Origin: an uncultured virus (IMG/VR IMGVR_UViG_2609459885_000003)
Taxonomy: Duplodnaviria > Heunggongvirae > Uroviricota > Caudoviricetes
DNA length: 20,000 nt
Reading direction: 5' to 3' (one strand)
Virus record (IMG/VR): IMGVR_UViG_2609459885_000003
Location: 54,568 to 74,567 of that record
Positions 430-11,680 of this stretch are shown piece after piece (the stretch's first letter is position 1; every line of letters starts with the position of its first letter). Below the pieces are notes generated by a model. The model saw only the letters and a program-made list of their open reading frames with translations, did no database searches and had not been told where the DNA came from. The position numbers and the translations under genes are program-made.

Positions 430-1308
430 ATGCCATTACTGCGTGAAGAAGCTGAAAAGCTGTCTAATAACGAGCTTGAACAGGGCGTGATCGAGACCAT
501 TATCGATCGTGACGACCTGTTTGCCGTCCTGCCTTTCATGAAAATCAATTCGAAGGCATATCTTTATAACCGCGAAAAAACCCTGAGCGAAGCTACTTTC
601 ATTGATGTGAACGACACCATCACCGAAGGTGCAGCAACCTTCGAAGAGAAAGTTGCGAAGCTGCGCATTCTGGCTGGCGACGTTGACGTCGACAAATTCC
701 TGGCTACCACTATGGCTGATACCAACAACCAGCTGGCTATCCAGGTTCGTCAGAAAGTCAAAGGTCTGGCTCGTGCCTTCCGTCGCAATCTGATTGTTGG
801 CGACTCCACCACTAACAACAAAGCCTTCGACGGTATTCCGAAGCTGATGCATGACGATCAGAAGATCGACATCTCCGGCGCATCCATGACTTTCTCTATG
901 TTCGACGAACTGGTCGACGCAGTTAAAGATCTGGGCGCAGACTGCATCATGATGCGTTCTGAGCATCTTCGCGCATATCGTGCGCTGCTGCGAACTGTAA
1001 ACGTAGGCCCGTCCGAAATCATGATGGAAAACTTCGGTCGACCAATGCTGTGCCATAACGGCGTTCCGTTTATCGTAAACGACTTCATTCCGGTTGCGGA
1101 CTCCACCAAAGCGGATATCTACTGTCTGCACCTTTCTGAAGAAAACGGTGTAACTGGTCTGTACGGCGGCGAAAACGCCGGTATCGTTGTGGAAAACATT
1201 GGCACCGTTCAGAACAAAGACGCAGTACGTACTCGTGTGAAGTGGTACTGCTCTCTGGCCAATAAGCACGACAAAGCTATCGCGGCGCTGACTAACGTCA
1301 AAATTTAA
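430..1308 (+). CDS. Major capsid protein (probable HK97 fold)
   Basis: 292 aa, SD-like AGGGA at 417-421, codon usage typical of highly expressed genes. Motifs such as 'LFAVLPF', 'LIVGD...AFDGI.KL' and 'GVPFIVNDFIP' are typical of phage capsid proteins. Followed by a terminator. Confidence 0.85.
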   Translation: MPLLREEAEKLSNNELEQGVIETIIDRDDLFAVLPFMKINSKAYLYNREKTLSEATFIDVNDTITEGAATFEEKVAKLRILAGDVDVDKFLATTMADTNNQLAIQVRQKVKGLARAFRRNLIVGDSTTNNKAFDGIPKLMHDDQKIDISGASMTFSMFDELVDAVKDLGADCIMMRSEHLRAYRALLRTVNVGPSEIMMENFGRPMLCHNGVPFIVNDFIPVADSTKADIYCLHLSEENGVTGLYGGENAGIVVENIGTVQNKDAVRTRVKWYCSLANKHDKAIAALTNVKI

Positions 1309-1347: not shown

Positions 1348-1373
1348 GGGTGGGCTATACGCCCGCCCTTTTT
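1348..1373 (+). terminator. Rho-independent terminator after the capsid gene
   Basis: GGGTGGGC-TATAC-GCCCGCCC (8-bp stem with one G-U pair) followed by TTTTT. Confidence 0.75.
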
Positions 1374-1386
1374 ATAGGAGCGATAT

Positions 1387-1815
1387 ATGTCAGAAAAAAA
1401 AGTGAAGATCACTGAAAAGGCCTTCACCGACTTTACGGGGGTTATGTTCCGTACTTCTTTCACTAAATCGGTGTCCGATCATCCAGTAAACGAGCGCATG
1501 CAGAACCGTATCACCGCAGCTATGCGAGCGGTTCCGATGGAGCCCACTGTCGCTGTTACTGGTGTGTCGGTAAGTCCTAAGTCGGCATCGGTGGAGGTGA
1601 AAAAAACGGTTCAACTAACGGCTACCGTGGCGCCTGCTGGTGCTACCAACAAGAAAGTTACCTGGGCGTCGAAAAATGCTGAATTTGCAACGGTTGACGC
1701 GGCTACTGGTCTCGTGACCGGCGTTGCAGAAGGGACTGCAACAATTGAAGTCACGACCGCAGACGGCAGCCATAAAGCAACCGCAACTGTTCAAGTTACA
1801 GCAGCTGCAGCCTGA
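1387..1815 (+). CDS. Ig-like (Big_2-type) domain protein, probable capsid decoration/accessory virion protein
   Basis: SD AGGAG at 1376-1380. The C-terminal ~90 aa 'VTGVSVSP...VQLTATVAPAGATNKKVTWAS...ATVD..TGLVTGVAEGTATIEVTTADG' match the bacterial Ig-like group 2 pattern. Confidence 0.8.
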   Translation: MSEKKVKITEKAFTDFTGVMFRTSFTKSVSDHPVNERMQNRITAAMRAVPMEPTVAVTGVSVSPKSASVEVKKTVQLTATVAPAGATNKKVTWASKNAEFATVDAATGLVTGVAEGTATIEVTTADGSHKATATVQVTAAAA

Positions 1816-1827
1816 TTCAGCAACAAG

Positions 1828-1845
1828 GGGTGGCTCTGGCCACCC
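1828..1845 (+). promoter_or_regulatory. Intergenic GC-rich hairpin (possible weak terminator or stability element)
   Basis: GGGTGGC-TCTG-GCCACCC, 7-bp stem, with only TGTT downstream. Confidence 0.4.
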
Positions 1846-1862
1846 TGTTCAGAGGAAAACTC

Positions 1863-4037: not shown

Positions 4038-4430
4038 ATGTTTGTAGAAGCATTCGCAAAATTGATACAGAAAAATGGGCTTGGAAAAGTAGGGACGGAC
4101 ATTTTCTGTCACTATATGCCAGCAAAAGTTAAGTCTGGCATTTTGCTGATTAATCCCAATACAGGCATAGCCATCGACCCGGATTTGCAGGGTTTTTACT
4201 TCGACTCATTCACGATAGTAGTTCGCAATGCGAGTATCACAAAATCTGTTGAAATGGCCAACAAAATCATGGATATCCTTCCTGTTAGCAACGTTGAGTC
4301 TGACGGGGTATTCTTCAAAATGGTTAGGCCGATGGCGATGCCAATAACGTATCCAATAAATGACGGATCGCTTATTGAAACAGGGATTCCACTTGAATTT
4401 GCCGGGTACTTTATTGAACTGAATAAATAA
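4038..4430 (+). CDS. Probable tail terminator / minor structural protein
   Basis: ATG 4038 lies just after the previous stop, with SD GAGG. 130 aa, immediately upstream of the tail tube gene. Confidence 0.55.
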   Translation: MFVEAFAKLIQKNGLGKVGTDIFCHYMPAKVKSGILLINPNTGIAIDPDLQGFYFDSFTIVVRNASITKSVEMANKIMDILPVSNVESDGVFFKMVRPMAMPITYPINDGSLIETGIPLEFAGYFIELNK

Positions 4431-4449
4431 GTAAGTATATACTTATCAT
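4427..4449 (+). promoter_or_regulatory. Copy 2 of the palindromic operator/late-promoter motif
   Basis: ATAAGTAAGTATATACTTAT followed by CAT, giving a -10-like TATCAT at 4444-4449. Upstream of the tail tube gene. Confidence 0.65.
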
Positions 4450-4497
4450 TGTGTGTCGGAATGACACTGTTTTAACGGAAAAAGGAGTTTTCCAATA

Positions 4498-5244
4498 ATG
4501 TCCAATACCCATGTTAAAAACATCAAGCTTGGCGCCTGCAAGGTGTCGTTTGGTGGCGTGGATCTGGGTTACACCAAAGGCGGTGTTCAGGTTGAAATCG
4601 CAACCGAAACGCTGAAAGTGACCGTAGACCAGCTGGGCCAGACCACGATCTCCGAGCTGATCCAAGGCCGCAACATCACCATTACTGCGCCGCTGGCTGA
4701 ATCCGTGTTGAAAAACATGGTCGATCTGATGCCAGGTTCAACGCTGAGTTCTGGCGAAGATACCGTAACCATCACGTCTGCGCAGGGTGTGAACCTGATC
4801 GACGTTGCAAAAGAGTTGGTGCTGACCCCGCAGGATGCGACGGATTATGTTCTGACCATCCCTAAAGCAGCAACCGCGGGTAACTTCACCATGACCTACC
4901 AGTCTGACGACGTTCGCGTGTTCTCAGTTGAGTTTTCCGCTTACCCGGACGACGCTGGCGTGTTGGGGAAAATGAGCCTCCCAAAGCCGGTTGAGAGCGT
5001 CACGCTGACCCCGTCTTCACCGACCGTAAAAGTGGGCGCTAAAGTTCAATTGAGCGCAACCTTTACCCCGGCCGATGCAACCAATAAGACTGGCGTGTGG
5101 AGCTCTGATGCGACTGATAAAGCGACCGTAGATCAGAACGGACTGGTAACTGGTAAAGCTGTCGGTTCAGCCAATATCACCTTCACAACTAATGACGGCG
5201 CCAAGAAGGCGACCAAAGCCGTCTCTGTAACTGCCGCAAGCTAA
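4498..5244 (+). CDS. Major tail (tube) protein with C-terminal Ig-like (Big_2) domain
   Basis: N-terminal 'IKLGACKVSFGGVDLGYTKGGV' is a siphovirus tube pattern. The C-terminal ~85 aa are Ig-like. SD AAGGAG. Upstream of the chaperone and tape measure genes. Confidence 0.85.
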   Translation: MSNTHVKNIKLGACKVSFGGVDLGYTKGGVQVEIATETLKVTVDQLGQTTISELIQGRNITITAPLAESVLKNMVDLMPGSTLSSGEDTVTITSAQGVNLIDVAKELVLTPQDATDYVLTIPKAATAGNFTMTYQSDDVRVFSVEFSAYPDDAGVLGKMSLPKPVESVTLTPSSPTVKVGAKVQLSATFTPADATNKTGVWSSDATDKATVDQNGLVTGKAVGSANITFTTNDGAKKATKAVSVTAAS

Positions 5245-5305
5245 ATTGTGATAACCAAAGAGGCCCATGGATGGGCCTCTGTATGAGTTTAAAAGGATTT
5301 AAACC

Positions 5306-5623
5306 ATGACCAAATTACTCGATCTCGACTCCATTCTGCCGCCGAAAAAAAGCATCAAATTTGGTGGCAAAGAATATCCCATCGTTGAAATGACCGTCGG
5401 CCTCTTTGTTTCTATCAAGCAGATGGAAGACAAAGACCTCATGAATATGTCTCCCGTCGACCAGGTAACTGCCTACGCAGAACTGGTACGCAAAGTCATT
5501 CCGTCAGTACCTGACTCCGTTCTGGAGAAACTGACTGTCCAGCAACTCCAGCAGATCTTCACTTTCGCCATGGAAGTGATTGATGAAGAGAACGAAAAAG
5601 CGGCTGGCGAAGGGGCAAAGTAA
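5306..5623 (+). CDS. Tail assembly chaperone (lambda gpG analogue)
   Basis: 105 aa between the tube and tape measure genes, SD AAGGA. Ends GGG GCA AAG TAA, overlapping an open -1 frame. Confidence 0.75.
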   Translation: MTKLLDLDSILPPKKSIKFGGKEYPIVEMTVGLFVSIKQMEDKDLMNMSPVDQVTAYAELVRKVIPSVPDSVLEKLTVQQLQQIFTFAMEVIDEENEKAAGEGAK

Positions 5624-5973
5624 TATCCCGCGATGAATCCGGGGTAAAGACCGTTTCGATAGATCTCGGATTCTATTTCAGTCGTGTAGTTGCTCACTAC
5701 GCCGTATCGCCAATAGAGCTACTGAGTGTCCCGTTGACCATGTTCTGGATGCTCAGCCGCAATATCGATCGTCTGCGAGCGGAAGAGGATGTCCGCAATC
5801 TGCAGGTCGCCCGCGTCGCCCAAGCGGATGGCGATGGCGTTAAGGCGTTCATGGAGGGTTTGCAACTCAGGATTGGAAGGCCAGTCGTTACTGATAAAGT
5901 CTACCGTCCGCATATGGATAAGGCAGACCCCGACGCCAAAGAGCAGCTGATGCAAATTTTTGGCAGAGGATGA
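5587..5973 (+). CDS. -1 frame extension of the tail assembly chaperone (lambda gpT/gpGT analogue)
   Basis: The -1 frame is open from 5587 (after TGA TGA at 5581-5586) to TGA 5971-5973 and reads ...GKVISRDESGVKTVSIDLGFYFSRVVAHYAVSPIELLSVPLTMFWML.... There is no good SD before the ORF-track start at 5734. Confidence 0.7.
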   Translation, partial: RERKSGWRRGKVISRDESGVKTVSIDLGFYFSRVVAHYAVSPIELLSVPLTMFWMLSRNIDRLRAEEDVRNLQVARVAQADGDGVKAFMEGLQLRIGRPVVTDKVYRPHMDKADPDAKEQLMQIFGRG

Positions 5974-5980
5974 CAAGGGA

Positions 5981-8900
5981 ATGTCACAAAACGTAGAGTT
6001 TATCCTGTCGCTGGAAGACAAACAGTTTACGGCGTCAATCGACCGGGCGGGTAAATTACTTACCAAATTTGGCGAGCGGGCTACCAAACCGGCTCAAAAA
6101 ATTAAAAACCTCGAGCGCTCTCTGGGTTCGGTCTCCAGCATTCTTGGCGCTCTTGAAACCAGACTCAATTCTACGGCAGACAAACTACAGGACGTAGCTG
6201 CCGGTTTTGAACTCGTTTCCAACACCTCTCGAAAGGCACAACGTGAACTGTCCGCTATCAGCACTGATTTGCGGACATTCACAGATCGCGTTGATTCAGC
6301 CACATCGTCTACGCACAAGTTCCTGGCCTCATTGCGGAAGGTTCAGTCGGAACTCAATGAGTTTTCTGATTGGGTTAAATACGCAGGAGACCATGCCGGT
6401 AAATTCAACACTGAGATCAAGGGTGCCACTACTTCTCTTGGTGGAATGAACACCAGACTAAATGCGACCAGCAAGCGTCTGAGCAATTGGGGAACAACGA
6501 CAAGCCAGGCGGCCGAGGGGTTAAAAAAAGTCAAAGATCAGATGGATGGCGTTATTCGAAGCCAGCAGCTGATCAGCCGTCCGGTCAGGGTCAGAACAAC
6601 CACAAAGGGCGGGGGAGGCAGCGGAGGTGGCGCTGATCGATTTACCGCTGCGCCCCATCGCGGTGGTGGTCGTGAAAATGGCGTCTTCTCAGGATTACGC
6701 GGCAATATTTTCCTTCTGGGAGAAATTGGGGATGCGGCCAGAACGGTCACTGACATCCTGTTTGGTTGGCAGAAGCCGATCGTAGAGGCTGCGGCCGAGA
6801 TGCAGCGTATGCGTGTCATGTTGCGTGGGTTGAATAAGGATAAGGTCAATCCTGGAGAAGCCGCTGCTCAAGACATGCAGTATATCGTGAATATGGCGAA
6901 AAACGCTCCATTTGCGATGCAGGCTTTAACCGACTCATTTGTGAAGTTCCGTTCTGCTGGGCTCGATCCTACTGATGGCTCGTTAAAGGCACTGGTGGAC
7001 TCAGTCGCACGTTTTGGTGGCGATAGTGAGTTGCTTAAGCGAGCGGCGGTGGCTGTCCAACAGATGTCTGGTAAAGGCGTTGTGTCGATGGAAGAGCTCC
7101 GCCAGCAATTGGGTGAAGCGGTTCCAAATGCGATGAAGGCCATGGCAGATGCGGCCGGTATCACGATGGGTGAGCTAACCAAAGCCGTCTCCAGTGGGAC
7201 CGTTGAAGCGAAACAGGCTCTTTCATTGATGTTTGTTGGTTTGCGTGCGGAAAACGAAAATGCCGCCAAAGATATGATGCAAACCTACACCGGTGCGTTG
7301 GCGCAGCTGCAAACCTCTTTCACTCTGTTTGCTGATCGAGTGGGGCAGGCTGGATACCTTGACTCGCTGACCAAGGGGATGAAAGAGCTGGCGGCCGTAA
7401 TGAACAGCGCAGAAGGCATTTCGTTCGCTAATTCATTGGGAGAGGGGCTTACCACCGCGATTGATGGCCTGCGCGAGCTGGCGCAATGGTTGGCTAAGAA
7501 TCAGGAGTTGGTTATTACGCTGGGCAAAATTGTCGCCGGAATGGTGGCATTTAAAATGCTCAGAGCGGGCATTTTAGGTGTTGTCGGCGCCGGCGGCCAG
7601 ATGCTTTCCACCTTCATGAAGATGTCCACTGTAATCCAGACACCATTCACGCTGGGGGCGACGGCGGTCACTCGTTTCAATCGTGCTGCACGCATGGGAC
7701 TGGCACCAATCCCATCGCTCATTTTTGCCATTCGTGGTGCGATTACGGGGCTGAAAGGGGCATTCGCTGGGCTGACTGCGTTTATCGCAGCAAACCCGAT
7801 TGGTGCTGCGTTTACCGTTGCAGCTGTAGCAGTGGCTGGACTGATCAGCTATATGACCATGCTTCGCAACGAAACGTCCAAAGTCGTTGAGGAGATCCGC
7901 AAAATCCCCGAGGCGATGACAGCCGCCAAGCGGGCACAGATGGCGGATTACAAGGAACGTCTTGATCGCCAAATAGCTCAGAAGGAGCAGGAGCTAAATT
8001 CTGGTGAAAAAATGGTCTACGGACCAGGGGTGGCCGGAACCACTATCAAAATTGACCGTAAGAAGGTCGAGTCCGAACTGAGCGACCTTCGCAAACAACG
8101 CGATAGAGTTAGTGGGACTATTGATCTGGGGGACACTGCCGTCTCCAAACGTCTCGCAAAAGAGGCGGCTGAATCTCAGATTGAAAAAATCCGCGATGAA
8201 AACAAAGATTTTTCGGCCAAGTTCGTGAAAGCGCGCCAGGAAGCTTTGGAGAAAATTCAGAAGATCAATGACGACAAGTCATTGTCCGATGATGAAAAGA
8301 ACAAGCTGCTGGGGCCATTACGAGAAACGGTAAATAAATCTTATCTGGTACCAGCCCAAAAGTTGGTTGAGTCTTTATCATCGCGCAAGACCGCAACTGA
8401 AAAGCAGATCGCACACTTCAGCGATCTGCTGGAAAAGGCGAAAAAAGAAGGAAACACAGAACAGGTACAGAAGCTGCAGGGCAGTATTCGTGGCTATCAG
8501 GAACATCTTGAAACTGTTGCTCAGGAACTGACACAGGCTGAGTTTGAACGCGATAACGCGGCGAAAACCGGAAAGGGCGTGAAGACCAACCAGGGAACAG
8601 TGCTTGGGTTGGGCACCAGCGACAAAGGCGCTGATAAAGCGCTCGCGCAGTACATGCGCAACCAGATGGACTCTGCGGTTTACCAGCGCACGCTGCCTGA
8701 TGGCACACCAATGATGGATTTTGAAGGAAAACCTATCATTGGGCCGAAGCAGCTTAAAACCCAGCTTAACCTGCAGAAAGCCTCCACTGCATCGTCTCTG
8801 GAAAAGATGAGCGAGAAGGAGCGTGCAGCCGCCATAGCCGCACTAACCAAAGCTCGTGAACAGGATGCTGCTGCTGCCGAGAGGGCGGGGAAGCGTACCG

Positions 8901-10516
8901 CGAATGCCTCTGAACGCGCCGCGAAGAGGGAGGAAAGTGCGCAACAGAAGCTGGCTGCCGGCTTCCAGAAGGCTCTGGATAAAGCTGATCAGCTCATGGG
9001 GCAAATGGGCGAAAGTTCAAAGGCCACCGTGTCGTTTGATCAGTCGCTGCGTGATGTCACTAAGTCACTAACCGATCTTGCAAACGCCACGCCTAACGAG
9101 TTTATCTCGCAGGAGATGGTTGACCAGGCTAAAAAACGTCTCGCGGATTTGAGGAACGCTACCCCCGAATACCGTGAAATGTTTAATCGCCGCAACGTCG
9201 AGCAAATGATCAGCGCTTGGGCGCCGGAATCGGATTCGATTATCAGCGCAGGCTTGATGCAAAGCCATGAGGAGAAGGCTGCCGAGTTTTCGGATACCTA
9301 CAACCGCAATCTTAAGGCGCTGATCGAGCTGCGTGATAAGGCGACTGACCCGAAAATCATCTCGCTTTACAACAAGCAGCTTAATCAGCTGGTGGCCGCT
9401 GGCAATAATGCGCTGATTAAGCAAACAGGCACAGCGACCCAGCAGTTGGCTCTGGAATATGAAAACCTGGCTGACCAGATCGAAGGTACCTGGACAGATC
9501 TGTTTAGCGGTTTAACTGACACGCTTACTGACTTTGTTGTTAACGGGAAGATGAGCATCTCCAGTCTGGCCACATCGTTCCTTAAAGACATCACCAACAT
9601 GGTCGTGAAGACTCAGATCACTCTGCCTCTCATGAATATGTTGGGAATGGGAACGACAAACGCTGGCAATGCACAAAGTGGAAATCTCATGAATGGCGTA
9701 GCGTCTGCGATCGCTAATCAAGGGGTTCAGCTAGGTAATTCTGGTGTGTCGGTGGCCAATGGGGATAAATCTGTCGGCGAGGCCACTAAGGAGACAGCCT
9801 CCGGCGTGAACTCTATGGGGCAAGCGTCTCAGAATGCGGCCAGTGGTTTAAGTCAGGCGGTGAATGGCGTCTGGGACTGGACTAAGTCATTGTTCACCGG
9901 TACTGACGCTACAAAAGATCAAACCAAAGCGGTTAACAGCAGCATCCTCAGTATGGGGAATCTGTCTACCGCGGCTGGGGCGCTGGCAGCTACATTCGCC
10001 ATGGTAGGTGCTTCGTCGTCGAGTTCGTCCAGCCGTTGGCTAAATTTCGGTCTGTCACTGGCCAGTACCGCAGTGTCCGCCTGGGCTGGGTCAGCTTCAT
10101 CGTCTTCATCTGAGCCAAAGCCTAATGTGAAGAAACACGCCAATGGCGGCATCTTTGGCAAGGAAGGGGTTGTACCTCTGAGAGCCTATCAGAAAGGCGG
10201 AATCGCCACCTCACCGCAGTTGGCGATGTTTGGCGAGGGCTCAATGAATGAGGCTTACGTACCGCTGCCAGATGGTCGAACCATTCCAGTCACACTTTCT
10301 GCAGAGTCGGCTGGAAAGAGTACGGGTAACGCGGTGTCCCCTGTCTCAATTCAAATCAATGTGACCAAGGATGGACGAACCAGCGAGAGCAGCAGTGGAA
10401 GCGAGAGCAATCTCTGGAACGGTGCAGCGCGGCAAATTAAGTCGATTGTGCTTGAGACGATTGCCGAAGAGAAACGTTCTGGTGGTTCACTTAATCCGCA
10501 TACCACCAGAGGGTAG
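5981..10516 (+). CDS. Tail tape measure protein (1511 aa)
   Basis: ATG 5981 with SD AAGGGA. Ala/Gly-rich and helical, with a tape-measure core ('NAPFAMQALTDSFVKF...QMSGKGVVSMEELRQQLGEAVP'), central hydrophobic segments and a typical C-terminus ('HANGGI...MFGEG..EAYVPL'). Confidence 0.92.
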   Translation: MSQNVEFILSLEDKQFTASIDRAGKLLTKFGERATKPAQKIKNLERSLGSVSSILGALETRLNSTADKLQDVAAGFELVSNTSRKAQRELSAISTDLRTFTDRVDSATSSTHKFLASLRKVQSELNEFSDWVKYAGDHAGKFNTEIKGATTSLGGMNTRLNATSKRLSNWGTTTSQAAEGLKKVKDQMDGVIRSQQLISRPVRVRTTTKGGGGSGGGADRFTAAPHRGGGRENGVFSGLRGNIFLLGEIGDAARTVTDILFGWQKPIVEAAAEMQRMRVMLRGLNKDKVNPGEAAAQDMQYIVNMAKNAPFAMQALTDSFVKFRSAGLDPTDGSLKALVDSVARFGGDSELLKRAAVAVQQMSGKGVVSMEELRQQLGEAVPNAMKAMADAAGITMGELTKAVSSGTVEAKQALSLMFVGLRAENENAAKDMMQTYTGALAQLQTSFTLFADRVGQAGYLDSLTKGMKELAAVMNSAEGISFANSLGEGLTTAIDGLRELAQWLAKNQELVITLGKIVAGMVAFKMLRAGILGVVGAGGQMLSTFMKMSTVIQTPFTLGATAVTRFNRAARMGLAPIPSLIFAIRGAITGLKGAFAGLTAFIAANPIGAAFTVAAVAVAGLISYMTMLRNETSKVVEEIRKIPEAMTAAKRAQMADYKERLDRQIAQKEQELNSGEKMVYGPGVAGTTIKIDRKKVESELSDLRKQRDRVSGTIDLGDTAVSKRLAKEAAESQIEKIRDENKDFSAKFVKARQEALEKIQKINDDKSLSDDEKNKLLGPLRETVNKSYLVPAQKLVESLSSRKTATEKQIAHFSDLLEKAKKEGNTEQVQKLQGSIRGYQEHLETVAQELTQAEFERDNAAKTGKGVKTNQGTVLGLGTSDKGADKALAQYMRNQMDSAVYQRTLPDGTPMMDFEGKPIIGPKQLKTQLNLQKASTASSLEKMSEKERAAAIAALTKAREQDAAAAERAGKRTANASERAAKREESAQQKLAAGFQKALDKADQLMGQMGESSKATVSFDQSLRDVTKSLTDLANATPNEFISQEMVDQAKKRLADLRNATPEYREMFNRRNVEQMISAWAPESDSIISAGLMQSHEEKAAEFSDTYNRNLKALIELRDKATDPKIISLYNKQLNQLVAAGNNALIKQTGTATQQLALEYENLADQIEGTWTDLFSGLTDTLTDFVVNGKMSISSLATSFLKDITNMVVKTQITLPLMNMLGMGTTNAGNAQSGNLMNGVASAIANQGVQLGNSGVSVANGDKSVGEATKETASGVNSMGQASQNAASGLSQAVNGVWDWTKSLFTGTDATKDQTKAVNSSILSMGNLSTAAGALAATFAMVGASSSSSSSRWLNFGLSLASTAVSAWAGSASSSSSEPKPNVKKHANGGIFGKEGVVPLRAYQKGGIATSPQLAMFGEGSMNEAYVPLPDGRTIPVTLSAESAGKSTGNAVSPVSIQINVTKDGRTSESSSGSESNLWNGAARQIKSIVLETIAEEKRSGGSLNPHTTRG

Positions 10517-10523
10517 TAAAGCC

Positions 10524-10543
10524 GGCCGCCTTAGCGGGCGGCC
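10524..10543 (+). promoter_or_regulatory. GC-rich intergenic hairpin after the tape measure gene
   Basis: GGCCGCC-TTAGCG-GGCGGCC; no U-tract on the + strand. Confidence 0.4.
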
Positions 10544-10559
10544 ATAACAAGGAAGTGAT

Positions 10560-10895
10560 ATGTCGAGGAAAGTATTTAATTGGTATCCAGATTATGAGTC
10601 TGAGAAAACCGTAAAGCCTAACGTGACCGTGCTGAACTACGGCGATGATTACGAGCAGCGCCAGTCGCAGGGGATCAATCGGATTAAAGAAGAGTGGTCT
10701 CTCACGTTCACCCGCAGCCATGACGTGGTAAACGACGTTGATGACTTTTTGACTGCCCGCGCAGGGGTGGAGTCATTCATTTGGACTAACCCAAGAGGCA
10801 AAGCAATTATCGTGGTTTGTGATAGCCATACGGTAAAGCGTTACCCAGGCTATCAAGTGCTTACGGCAACATTTAGACAGGTTTTTGAGTCTTAA
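10560..10895 (+). CDS. Minor tail / distal tail protein (lambda gpM-like)
   Basis: 'YGDDYEQRQSQGIN', 'FLTARAGVESFIWTNP' and 'LTATFRQVF' match the gpM family; follows the tape measure gene. Confidence 0.88.
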   Translation: MSRKVFNWYPDYESEKTVKPNVTVLNYGDDYEQRQSQGINRIKEEWSLTFTRSHDVVNDVDDFLTARAGVESFIWTNPRGKAIIVVCDSHTVKRYPGYQVLTATFRQVFES

Positions 10896-10908
10896 TTTGC
10901 GACTATAG

Positions 10909-10931
10909 ATAAGTAAGTGCTTATCTATTAT
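10909..10931 (+). promoter_or_regulatory. Copy 3 of the palindromic operator/late-promoter motif
   Basis: ATAAGTAAGTGCTTATCTAT followed by TAT, giving a -10-like TATTAT at 10926-10931. Upstream of the L-K-I-J genes. Confidence 0.65.
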
Positions 10932-10937
10932 TATATA

Positions 10938-10968
10938 TCAACGTCACAGGATGTGACGTTGAGTTTTT
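10938..10968 (+). promoter_or_regulatory. 11-bp hairpin with GGA loop followed by a T-run (CsrA-like site and/or attenuator)
   Basis: TCAACGTCACA-GGA-TGTGACGTTGA then GTTTTT. Confidence 0.55.
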
Positions 10969-10981
10969 CAAGGATGAAGTG

Positions 10982-11680
10982 ATGGGTATTAGAGCTGATA
11001 TTCAGAGTTTATCGCCTTCTGCGCTCATTGAGTTGTTCGAGCTGGATATGTCGGTGACAACCTCCGGCGGCAAGTTGTATTTCCATGCCGGCACCAACGG
11101 GCTTAGCCAGCCAATTGTCTGGCAGGGGGTTTCCTATGAGCCGTGGCCAATTAAAGCGTCTGGCTTTGATAAAAGCGGTCAGGGAACACTTCCTCGTCCA
11201 AAGATTCAGGTTTCCAACTACGACGGTGTAATTTCTGCGGAGCTGCAGGCCAATGACGATCTGATTGGCTGCAAAATCATTCGCAAGATGACGCTGGCAC
11301 GTTTTCTGGACGCGGTGAACTTTCCGGATGGAAACCCGACCGCAGACCCAAGTCAGCATTTTGCTGATGAAATGTGGTTCGTCGAACAGAAGACCCTGGA
11401 GACGCACCAGTATGTCGAATTCGAGCTGTCCAGCGTCTTGGATCTGATGGGCGTTCAACTGCCGTATCGTCAGATCATCAAAAACAGCTGCCCGTGGAAA
11501 TATCGCGGAACAGAGTGTGGCTACACCGGCCCATATTTCGACAAAAACAACCAGCAAACCTCTTTGGCCGGCGCCGACTACTGCACCAAGCGTTACGACG
11601 CCTGTAATGCTCGTCGCAACTACTTCGCGAATGGCGTTATTCATTTTGGCGGATTTATTGGGGCGACACGATATGAGTAA
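10982..11680 (+). CDS. Tail tip protein L (lambda gpL-like, Fe-S cluster cysteines)
   Basis: Motifs 'IELFELD', 'GTLPRPKIQVSN' and 'RKMTLARFLDAVNF'. C-terminal CPWKYRGTEC...C.K....C carries four Cys. Confidence 0.92.
   Translation: MGIRADIQSLSPSALIELFELDMSVTTSGGKLYFHAGTNGLSQPIVWQGVSYEPWPIKASGFDKSGQGTLPRPKIQVSNYDGVISAELQANDDLIGCKIIRKMTLARFLDAVNFPDGNPTADPSQHFADEMWFVEQKTLETHQYVEFELSSVLDLMGVQLPYRQIIKNSCPWKYRGTECGYTGPYFDKNNQQTSLAGADYCTKRYDACNARRNYFANGVIHFGGFIGATRYE

Follow-up and report, generated by a model that had tools for sequence, protein, structure and literature searches.

Conserved intercistronic hairpins in the late operon of a Klebsiella phage-plasmid as candidate docking sites for host CsrA

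Do the hairpins between the virion genes of a phage-plasmid offer their loops to a translational regulator, or do they act through their stems? The question is raised by a 20,000-nt stretch (the window) of the uncultured-virus record IMGVR_UViG_2609459885_000003, positions 54,568 to 74,567, which covers the late operon, with its head and tail genes, of a Klebsiella phage-plasmid of SSU5/pKpn type. A sequence-only reading of the window had described a shared two-hairpin layout in three leaders, those of the major tail protein (tube), of a gene in the position of a tail chaperone and of the minor tail protein gpL. In each leader, an upstream hairpin presents GGA in its loop and a second hairpin displays the GGA of the Shine-Dalgarno sequence (SD), from which control by host CsrA or by a phage-encoded mimic was proposed. 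Comparison of the leaders across relatives shows that the hairpins are real, conserved, RNA-level intercistronic elements of the late operon. It also shows that a CA(N)GGA(N)G apex is held by selection in the chaperone-position and gpL leaders and in a fourth leader, before a terS-like gene, unlike the loops of neighbouring hairpins. Docking of CsrA on these leaders is put forward as a hypothesis and not as a finding.

Paired hairpins in three tail-gene leaders

All six stem-loops are present in the window where they had been placed (Table 1). An upstream apical-loop GGA and a second, SD-overlapping GGA occur in all three leaders, and the spacing between the two is 26 nt (tube), 26 nt (chaperone position) and 23 nt (gpL), as had been counted. 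Across relatives, the distance from the loop GGA to the SD GGA is 21-26 nt; dual-site bridging by CsrA covers about 10-63 nt. The hairpins have the G+C-rich stem of at least 5 pairs and the short loop expected of intrinsic terminators.

Table 1. Leader hairpins, other hairpins, genes and palindrome copies (window positions unless another record is named; sequences of hairpins as stem-loop-stem)
Feature	Position	Strand	Sequence	Remark
Tube leader, upstream hairpin	4453-4467	+	GUGUC-GGAAU-GACAC	kept as structure only
Tube leader, SD-display hairpin	4477-4493	+	GGAAAA-AGGAG-UUUUCC	SD in loop; ATG at 4498
Chaperone-position leader, upstream hairpin	5259-5280	+	AGAGGCCCA-UGGA-TGGGCCTCT (RNA 3' arm UGGGCCUCU)	14 nt after tube stop codon
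Chaperone-position leader, SD hairpin	5287-5304	+	GUUUAAA-AGGA-UUUAAAC	weak, A/U-only; displays the SD; ATG at 5306
gpL leader, upstream hairpin	10938-10962	+	TCAACGTCACA-GGA-TGTGACGTTGA (RNA UCAACGUCACA-GGA-UGUGACGUUGA)	then GUUUUUC; terminator-like
gpL leader, SD hairpin	10967-10978	+	UUCA-AGGA-UGAA	ATG at 10982
terS-like leader hairpin	G000 50500-50519; L019:27032-27051		AGAGCGC-AAGGAA-GCGCUCU	then GUGUGUGUUUU; 4,067 nt before window
gpM leader, control hairpin	10524-10543	+	GGCCGCCU-UAGC-GGGCGGCC	between tape measure gene and gpM; stem kept, loop free
gpM SD region	10545-10559	+	UAACAAGGAAGUGAU	ATG at 10560
Terminator hairpin	1348-1368	+	GGGUGGGC-UAUAC-GCCCGCCC	then UUUUU; 3' of major head gene; loop without GGA
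Hairpin before head gene at 1863	1827-1846	+	GGGGUGGC-UCUG-GCCACCCU	loop without GGA
Palindrome copy	1317-1336	none	ATAAGT-N8-ACTTAT, perfect	3' of major head gene
Palindrome copy	4427-4446	none	ATAAGT-N8-ACTTAT, 20 bp	directly 5' of tube-leader hairpin
Palindrome copy	10909-10928	none		5' of gpL-leader hairpin; kept in relatives
Major head protein	430-1305			PHROG match
Ig-domain structural protein	1387-1812			PHROG match
Ig-domain major tail protein (tube)	4498-5241			PHROG match
"Chaperone"-position gene	5306-5620			matches phrog_893, a function-unknown family
Tape measure	5981-10513			PHROG match
Minor tail protein, M type (gpM)	10560-10892			PHROG match
Minor tail protein, L type (gpL)	10982-11677			PHROG match

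The predicted stability of the leaders varies. The chaperone-position leader folds at -22.3 kcal/mol (z -4.13), as well as which none of 200 shuffles folded, and the gpL leader at -16.2 kcal/mol (z -3.29; 1 of 200 shuffles as good). The tube leader reaches only -10.9 kcal/mol (z -1.32), equalled by 19 of 200 shuffles. Since the minus strands fold equally well (z -3.3, -4.4 and -6.2), energy alone cannot name the strand. Three of the six long spacers of the window carry an upstream GGA-loop hairpin; three or more did so in 1 of 2000 dinucleotide shuffles, a null that mixes the existence of a hairpin with the presence of GGA in its loop. Over the 79 leaders of a near-identical whole plasmid, 91 hairpin loops outside SD sequences hold GGA seven times and TCC once.

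Relatives of the leaders were gathered from 14 annotated or genome loci and from IMG/VR loci found with gpL (80), the chaperone-position protein (80) and the terS-like protein (74). Once identical leaders had been collapsed, the unique leaders numbered 37 for gpL (94 loci), 29 for the chaperone position (94 loci) and 35 for the tube (91 loci). A scan of genome contigs with the tube protein gave five useful loci; two distant Ig-domain matches (L006, L007) were excluded.

Stems and loops across relatives

The gpL leader retains GGA in the upstream loop of 32 of its 37 unique leaders, while the lower stem is wholly different by clade (UCAACGU..., GGCGC..., GUGCGC... and, in the distant L095, CGCCUAC-GGAAA-GUGGGCG) with pairing kept. 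The apex ACAGGA(N)G persists across clades despite this replacement; the outcome named as refuting in the sequence-only reading, loss of the loop GGA from a kept stem, is not seen in gpL. On a tree of 73 unique sequences, the ACAGGA columns change 1, 0, 0, 1, 2 and 1 times and the next base 4 times, compared with an average of 3.1 at third codon positions. These values come from single-sequence folds and from parsimony on a longer alignment, used instead of pair counts on an alignment with gaps inside the stem; the parsimony omits L069, L072 and L086, whose flank is short, L041, in which the hairpin is replaced, the distant clade L093-L100, and L004. The conserved upstream apex, ACAGGAUGU, is one base short of the CsrA consensus, at the R/N position. 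The gpL SD, CAAGGAUG at 10969-10976, matches the RsmA/N motif CANGGAYG at 8 of 8 positions; its CAAGGA and G show 0 changes, and the intervening base (U in the window) shows 4. The SD loop is predicted in 17 of the 37 unique leaders, the stems of the SD hairpin covary, as do those of the tube SD hairpin, and the U tract after the upstream hairpin is interrupted in several clades (UACUUAUUU, GUAACUUC).

The chaperone-position leader has a loop GGA in 27 of 29 unique leaders, in the form of UGGA, AGGAA, AGGAU, AGGAC or AUGGA, and the apex in the window (CAUGGAUG at 5266-5273) agrees with CANGGAYG at 8 of 8 positions. Loop columns change 0, 1, 2, 0, 2 and 1 times, against a third-position rate of 2.5-4. 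The stem is conserved as well: six of its eight pairs are invariant, and most stem columns have 0 changes. Judged against the third-position rate, selection on the hairpin as a whole is clear, and selection specifically on the GGA is not shown. As a count, retention of the loop GGA is borne out, though the stem is equally conserved. A U tract follows the hairpin as CUUUU in relatives and as GUAUGAGUUU, a poor one, in this clade. The hairpin is a candidate attenuator and CsrA site. The A/U-only SD hairpin downstream is marginal, being part of the minimum-energy fold in 4 of the 29 unique leaders.

The fourth leader precedes the gene of a DNA-binding protein 5' of terL, with the SD GGA 26 nt downstream of its hairpin. 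Variants of this terS-like hairpin in relatives include GGAGCGCA-AGGA-UGCGCUCU, GGAGCACA-AGGA-UGUGCUCU and AGAGCGC-AUGGAC-GCGCUCU. The GGA loop belongs to the minimum-energy fold of 15 of 22 unique leaders; in six of the remaining seven a longer helix is preferred and the local hairpin is still visible, and in the seventh (L181) a one-base deletion in the 3' arm breaks it. The three GGA columns show no change (0, 0, 0) and the two flanking N positions 1 and 2, where third codon positions change 2.5 times (73 loci).

The hairpin between the tape measure gene and gpM serves as a control. It has 19 different loops in 29 unique leaders (92 loci, largely the same as those of the other leaders); the stems show covariation, and the loop columns show as many as 9 or more changes. 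The loop before the head gene at 1863 is likewise free to vary among relatives (10 sequences). Because the gpM and 1863-gene loops drift freely, free loops are the rule in this operon and fixed GGA loops the exception. The gpM control loops include GACC and GGUC, which are mutual inversions; as a mutation, inversion of the loop seems to arise commonly in this set of hairpins. The gpM SD reads ACAAGGAAGU in the window. In relatives it is ACAAGGAUGU, in the apex of CUCACA-AGGA-UGUGAG (a 6-pair stem), a near-perfect match to the CsrA consensus from in vitro selection that had not been listed in the sequence-only reading. Most unique leaders are predicted to form this SD hairpin, and its stems covary (UCACA/UGUGA, AUCAC/GUGAU, UCUC/GAGA).

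In the tube leader, the upstream hairpin is preserved as a fold. All five pairs change on both sides and 91.4% of cells are paired; covariation is 0.296, a value attained by none of 500 shuffles, which give 0.143, and sliding the helix yields no more than 0.105. Rows L017, L171 and L173 are aligned one column out of register in this helix. In the second helix, L175, L176, L178, L179 and L180 are out of register and were scored as unpaired, and L164, with a shorter SD stem, is unpaired at one pair. The upstream loops vary (AUGAA, GUGAA, AAUGAGA, AAAAA, GAUGACG and others), and on a tree of 71 unique sequences their columns change 5, 3, 3, 3 and 4 times, where third codon positions change 3.95 times. 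The loop of the window, UCGGAAUG, does not fit the extended CsrA consensus, and UGUUUU follows the stem. The loop at the SD position has GGA in 34 of 35 unique leaders; the distant clade L175-L180 forms the same fold with other letters (UGCAAA-AAGGAG-UUUGCA). By these comparisons, the upstream hairpin is a structure-only element whose loop GGA is incidental in this clade, and it is perhaps a 5' or 3' stabiliser. Relative to the window, the strains behind the RNA runs X1 and X4 carry T>C at 4446, C>T at 4447 and, at 4453, a G>A change that abolishes the outer pair of this hairpin.

Possible CsrA docking and the competing explanations

The conserved apex of the chaperone-position, gpL and terS-like hairpins, CA(N)GGA(N)G, fits the published CsrA/Rsm consensus. 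In Salmonella, crosslinking and immunoprecipitation with sequencing is reported to place CsrA on [A/C]UGGA in apical loops, with GGA in every peak (PMC5207318). In vitro selection (SELEX) is reported to have yielded RUACARGGAUGU for CsrA, with ACA and GGA invariant (PMC4347634), and CANGGAYG in a hexaloop for RsmA/N (10.1101/2020.08.24.265819).

Two known systems, as the cited report describes them, provide models for such an arrangement. In the ColE7 operon, CsrA binds the loop of the T1 terminator and the cel SD and represses cel translation about 5-fold (Yang et al., NAR 2010, PMC2896534). The likeness extends to an extrachromosomal, damage-inducible operon and a short intercistronic spacer (61 nt in ColE7, 61-86 nt here). 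In both, a stem-loop of terminator type presents GGA in its single-stranded loop, a second site overlaps the SD of the gene that follows, and the downstream gene is needed in small amounts. The two differ in that binding and repression were measured for ColE7 and are predicted here; furthermore, the layout recurs here, at three or four junctions within a virion operon, and the genes downstream serve morphogenesis where that of ColE7 serves lysis. The glgC leader, presented in the same report as the textbook dual-site target, has an upstream loop GGA that tethers CsrA and allows bridging to an SD-overlapping GGA (PMC2896534). It shares with the leaders studied here the upstream GGA-loop hairpin and the SD-overlapping GGA, and it differs in being the leader of a chromosomal metabolic gene, transcribed from its own promoter; here two of the sites are intercistronic and the stems are longer and terminator-like.

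The favoured reading, which we consider plausible if still short of probable, is that the hairpins are intercistronic attenuators and SD-display hairpins of which those of the chaperone-position, gpL and terS-like leaders also dock host CsrA. In each leader, a G+C-rich and in part terminator-like stem-loop upstream is joined to a small hairpin displaying the SD GGA. A CsrA dimer of the host would dock on the loop GGA and bridge to the SD GGA 21-26 nt downstream, thereby lowering the translation of low-copy assembly proteins that are encoded after high-copy ones. Such repression would add to any attenuation by the stem-loop, with the ColE7 T1 loop and cel SD, and glgC, as models. The genes behind GGA hairpins (terS-like, chaperone-position and minor tail protein L) are expected to be low-copy, and the major head gene is without such a hairpin.

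The regulator would be supplied by the host, csrA being carried by Enterobacterales. A phage-encoded mimic, the other source proposed in the sequence-only reading, found no support: the CsrA family (PF02599) has 0 matches in the source virus record (G000; 74,567 bases, 68% complete) and in four whole records, namely a Klebsiella plasmid, SSU5, pHCM2 and pECAZ155_2, in a search that found the family in control genomes. A GGA-rich sponge RNA on the replicon, for which a search had been suggested, was not found either. Rfam at gathering scores matched tRNA only over 110,928 nt, with no Csr/Rsm RNA family, and the replicon holds no dense, CsrB-like GGA array, the maximum being 10 GGA per 200 nt, mostly in coding DNA. 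A match to SorX at 1308-1374 (E 0.11; 22 bits against a gathering score of 46.6) was taken as chance.

Several observations weigh against CsrA docking. SD sequences contain GGA anyway, the stems are long and G+C-rich with U runs after some of them, and a purely cis role suffices for the stems. Over the replicon, the enrichment of GGA loops is modest: 7 occur where mononucleotide shuffles, which yield fewer hairpins (69 versus 91), average 2.7 and reach 7 in 7 of 300 cases. Among the loops of the 79 leaders, GGA is only one of several frequent triplets and not the commonest. The plus strand of the plasmid has CA.GGATG 11 times, 4 of them within 16.8 kb of annotated intergenic DNA, and the minus strand 7 times, 1 of them intergenic, which is a modest intergenic excess. 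Of the 35 unique tube leaders, 11 have GGA in the upstream loop, namely those of this clade, L173 and the distant L175-L180 clade; the loop GGA is thus lost while the stem is kept, the outcome that the sequence-only reading had named as refuting. The chaperone-position loop lacks GGA as AGGCA (9 loci) and UGA (4 loci), and with 4 changes over the three GGA columns its stem is at least as conserved as the GGA. In E. coli pECAZ155_2 (L009:13578-13642) the gpL hairpin has an unchanged stem and an inverted loop, UCC instead of GGA, and in L036 the loop reads GAA. The gpL leader of one IMG/VR contig (L041, 539-603) has a tandem repeat, (GGTGAT)n, and another hairpin where the usual one would stand, and seven loci that form a clade (L093 type, L098) are without any gpL-leader hairpin. 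Conservation of a CsrA-type loop stands for gpL and the terS-like leader and, as a count, for the chaperone position, and falls for the tube.

Stem-loops between genes and partial intrinsic terminators set stoichiometry within operons. The strongest rival, possible and on balance unlikely, is purely cis: partial terminators or attenuators and 3' or 5' stabilisers would set the ratio of virion proteins, the loops would go unread, and GGA would be kept for another reason or by limited divergence. A G+C-rich hairpin is present in nearly every late-operon spacer, some of these hairpins having U runs and following high-copy genes, as in stoichiometric stem-loops. The stems of 8-11 G+C-rich pairs are followed by GUUUUUC in gpL and by CUUUU in relatives of the chaperone-position leader, similar hairpins without GGA occur in the window (1348-1368, 1827-1846 and 10524-10543), natural isolates carry the UCC inversion and the loop mutants, and the chaperone-position hairpin is conserved whole, stem included. 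However, stoichiometric stem-loops need no fixed loop, and three loops here keep CA(N)GGA(N)G while control loops drift. The drift of the gpM control loops takes place at the same kind of junction in mostly the same relatives, the gpL and terS-like loops retain GGA amid variable neighbours, and the U tracts of several chaperone-position and gpL clades are poor.

A different reader of the loops is a doubtful alternative. It could be an RNA-binding protein encoded by the phage, acting as repressor or antiterminator, or else the 30S subunit, for which the loop AGGA would be a standby site resembling an SD. Loop constraint in the gpL and terS-like leaders versus the free gpM control speaks for such a reader too. 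Outer stems (AGAG...CUCU) and A(A)GGAA loops are common to the terS-like and chaperone-position hairpins, a likeness that could point to a single reader of stem and loop, and an operator-like palindrome in the adjacent DNA suggests that phage-specific control acts here. On the other hand, the conserved letters are those of the CsrA/Rsm consensus, the loops are not extended to GGAGG as a standby SD favours, and AUGGA variants weaken pairing with the anti-SD. No known RNA family was matched, and no candidate protein was identified. Loops of boxB or GNRA type were rejected, as the loops do not fit G-N-R-(N)-A.

A DNA-level origin, in which palindromes for a dimeric DNA-binding protein or cruciforms leave RNA folds as a by-product, is very improbable: both strands fold equally well and two of the hairpins have members of a true DNA palindrome family a few bases upstream of them, but only the sense strand has G-U pairs (UGAC/GUUG for the gpL hairpin, U-G for L118), leader loops favour GGA over TCC, and compensatory changes in the tube and gpM hairpins preserve pairing and not sequence. 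Chance, whereby three loops happen to contain a three-letter word in purine-rich leaders, can be set aside with similar assurance, as the spacer shuffles, the conservation across clades and the fourth leader with its invariant GGA make it already unlikely for gpL and terS-like, even though GGA is not the commonest loop triplet of the replicon and the tube loop GGA is indeed incidental.

If CsrA does dock on these leaders, a wider and rather improbable extension is that phage-plasmids of the SSU5/pKpn/pHCM2/pMT1 type use it as a shared translational brake on the terS-like, chaperone-position, gpM and gpL genes, with loops that double as attenuators and late mRNA that titrates the protein. Stray late transcripts would then stay untranslated in the plasmid state. 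Once induction floods the cell with late mRNA, CsrA would be titrated, which would create a threshold switch and set the ratio of low- to high-copy proteins; a GGA-hairpin-rich leader elsewhere on the replicon (L019:4160-4298) could add to the titration.

This family of phage-plasmids is common in clinical Enterobacterales. If CsrA reads the loops, a global regulator of carbon and stress responses would set the dose and timing of virion assembly proteins, particle production and hence the spread of the phage-plasmids would be tied to host physiology, and the ColE7 precedent, which concerns one lysis gene, would come to include an entire morphogenesis operon. Should CsrA not bind, the conserved set of intercistronic hairpins and its selected loop motif need another explanation. 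Full-text literature searches, with subscription journals outside their coverage, found no paper on CsrA control of phage structural genes, and literature searches found no description of late gene control in this phage-plasmid family. SSU5 appears just as a listed type in a 2026 phage-plasmid preprint.

Genomic setting, palindromes and further leaders

The 1.2 kb around the tube gene is 99.9% identical to ~111-kb Klebsiella pneumoniae plasmids and ~80% identical to Salmonella phage SSU5. The tube region matches 609 PLSDB plasmids from Klebsiella, Enterobacter, Escherichia, Yersinia, Salmonella and Citrobacter. Twelve RNA runs contain the stretch, three of which were examined as assembled contigs. 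These contigs (0.3-40 kb) pass through all hairpins, with DNA carry-over possible; one run examined as raw reads had 0 reads.

The label of tail chaperone given to the gene at 5306 follows from its position between the major tail protein and the tape measure; the protein matches only phrog_893, a function-unknown family. A short open reading frame (ORF) annotated in relatives at 5749-5973, between the chaperone-position gene and the tape measure, lies where a frameshift extension (G-T type) is usually found. Mini-ORFs noticed by eye in the leaders of gpL and the tube were set aside, as they lack an SD and are not conserved. The phage-plasmid carries a tRNA gene (L018:10535-10606; Rfam tRNA, 77.5 bits). 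The hairpin at 1348-1368, with a fold z of -2.69 and the loop UAUAC in 13 of 14 sequences, is by its sequence a canonical terminator.

The palindrome has the 20-bp consensus ATAGGTAAGTACTTACCTAT and spans ~30 bp with its flanks AAAT(G/A) and (C/T)ATTT. The 110,928-bp plasmid has 17 sites within 3 mismatches (14 besides the three of the window), of which 15 are intergenic, and the element is conserved in relatives. Copies mostly lie 11-134 nt before plus-strand genes, and the tube and gpL upstream hairpins and the post-capsid terminator start 6-11 nt downstream of one. The palindrome has the look of a dispersed operator. Read as part of a promoter, the -10-like TATNAT at its 3' edge would start transcripts at or inside the hairpins; four copies lie just 11-17 nt before start codons with the SD in between, which runs counter to a promoter reading. 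Phage P1 has dispersed C1 operators and Lpa-dependent late promoters. The palindrome resembles these in being repeated about 17 times before genes of the replicon and in its position just upstream of the tube, gpL and post-capsid hairpins; it is a DNA element, separate from the GGA loops. No paper on the palindrome core was found in a literature search.

Two further regions of the plasmid are rich in GGA. An unannotated gap at L019:18271-18470 (plasmid 68271-68470) has 9 GGA per 200 nt and direct repeats of GGGAAACGGC, and resembles iterons or some other DNA repeat more closely than it does a Csr-type sponge. Outside the window, a palindrome copy is followed at L019:4160-4298 (plasmid 54160-54298) by a leader of 139 nt that folds very strongly, at -45.7 kcal/mol (z -4.28), and contains CGUCA-GGA-UGAC and GUUCCA-AGGA-UGGAAC, with the SD GGA in a loop; it is a further multi-GGA leader, or possibly a small RNA.

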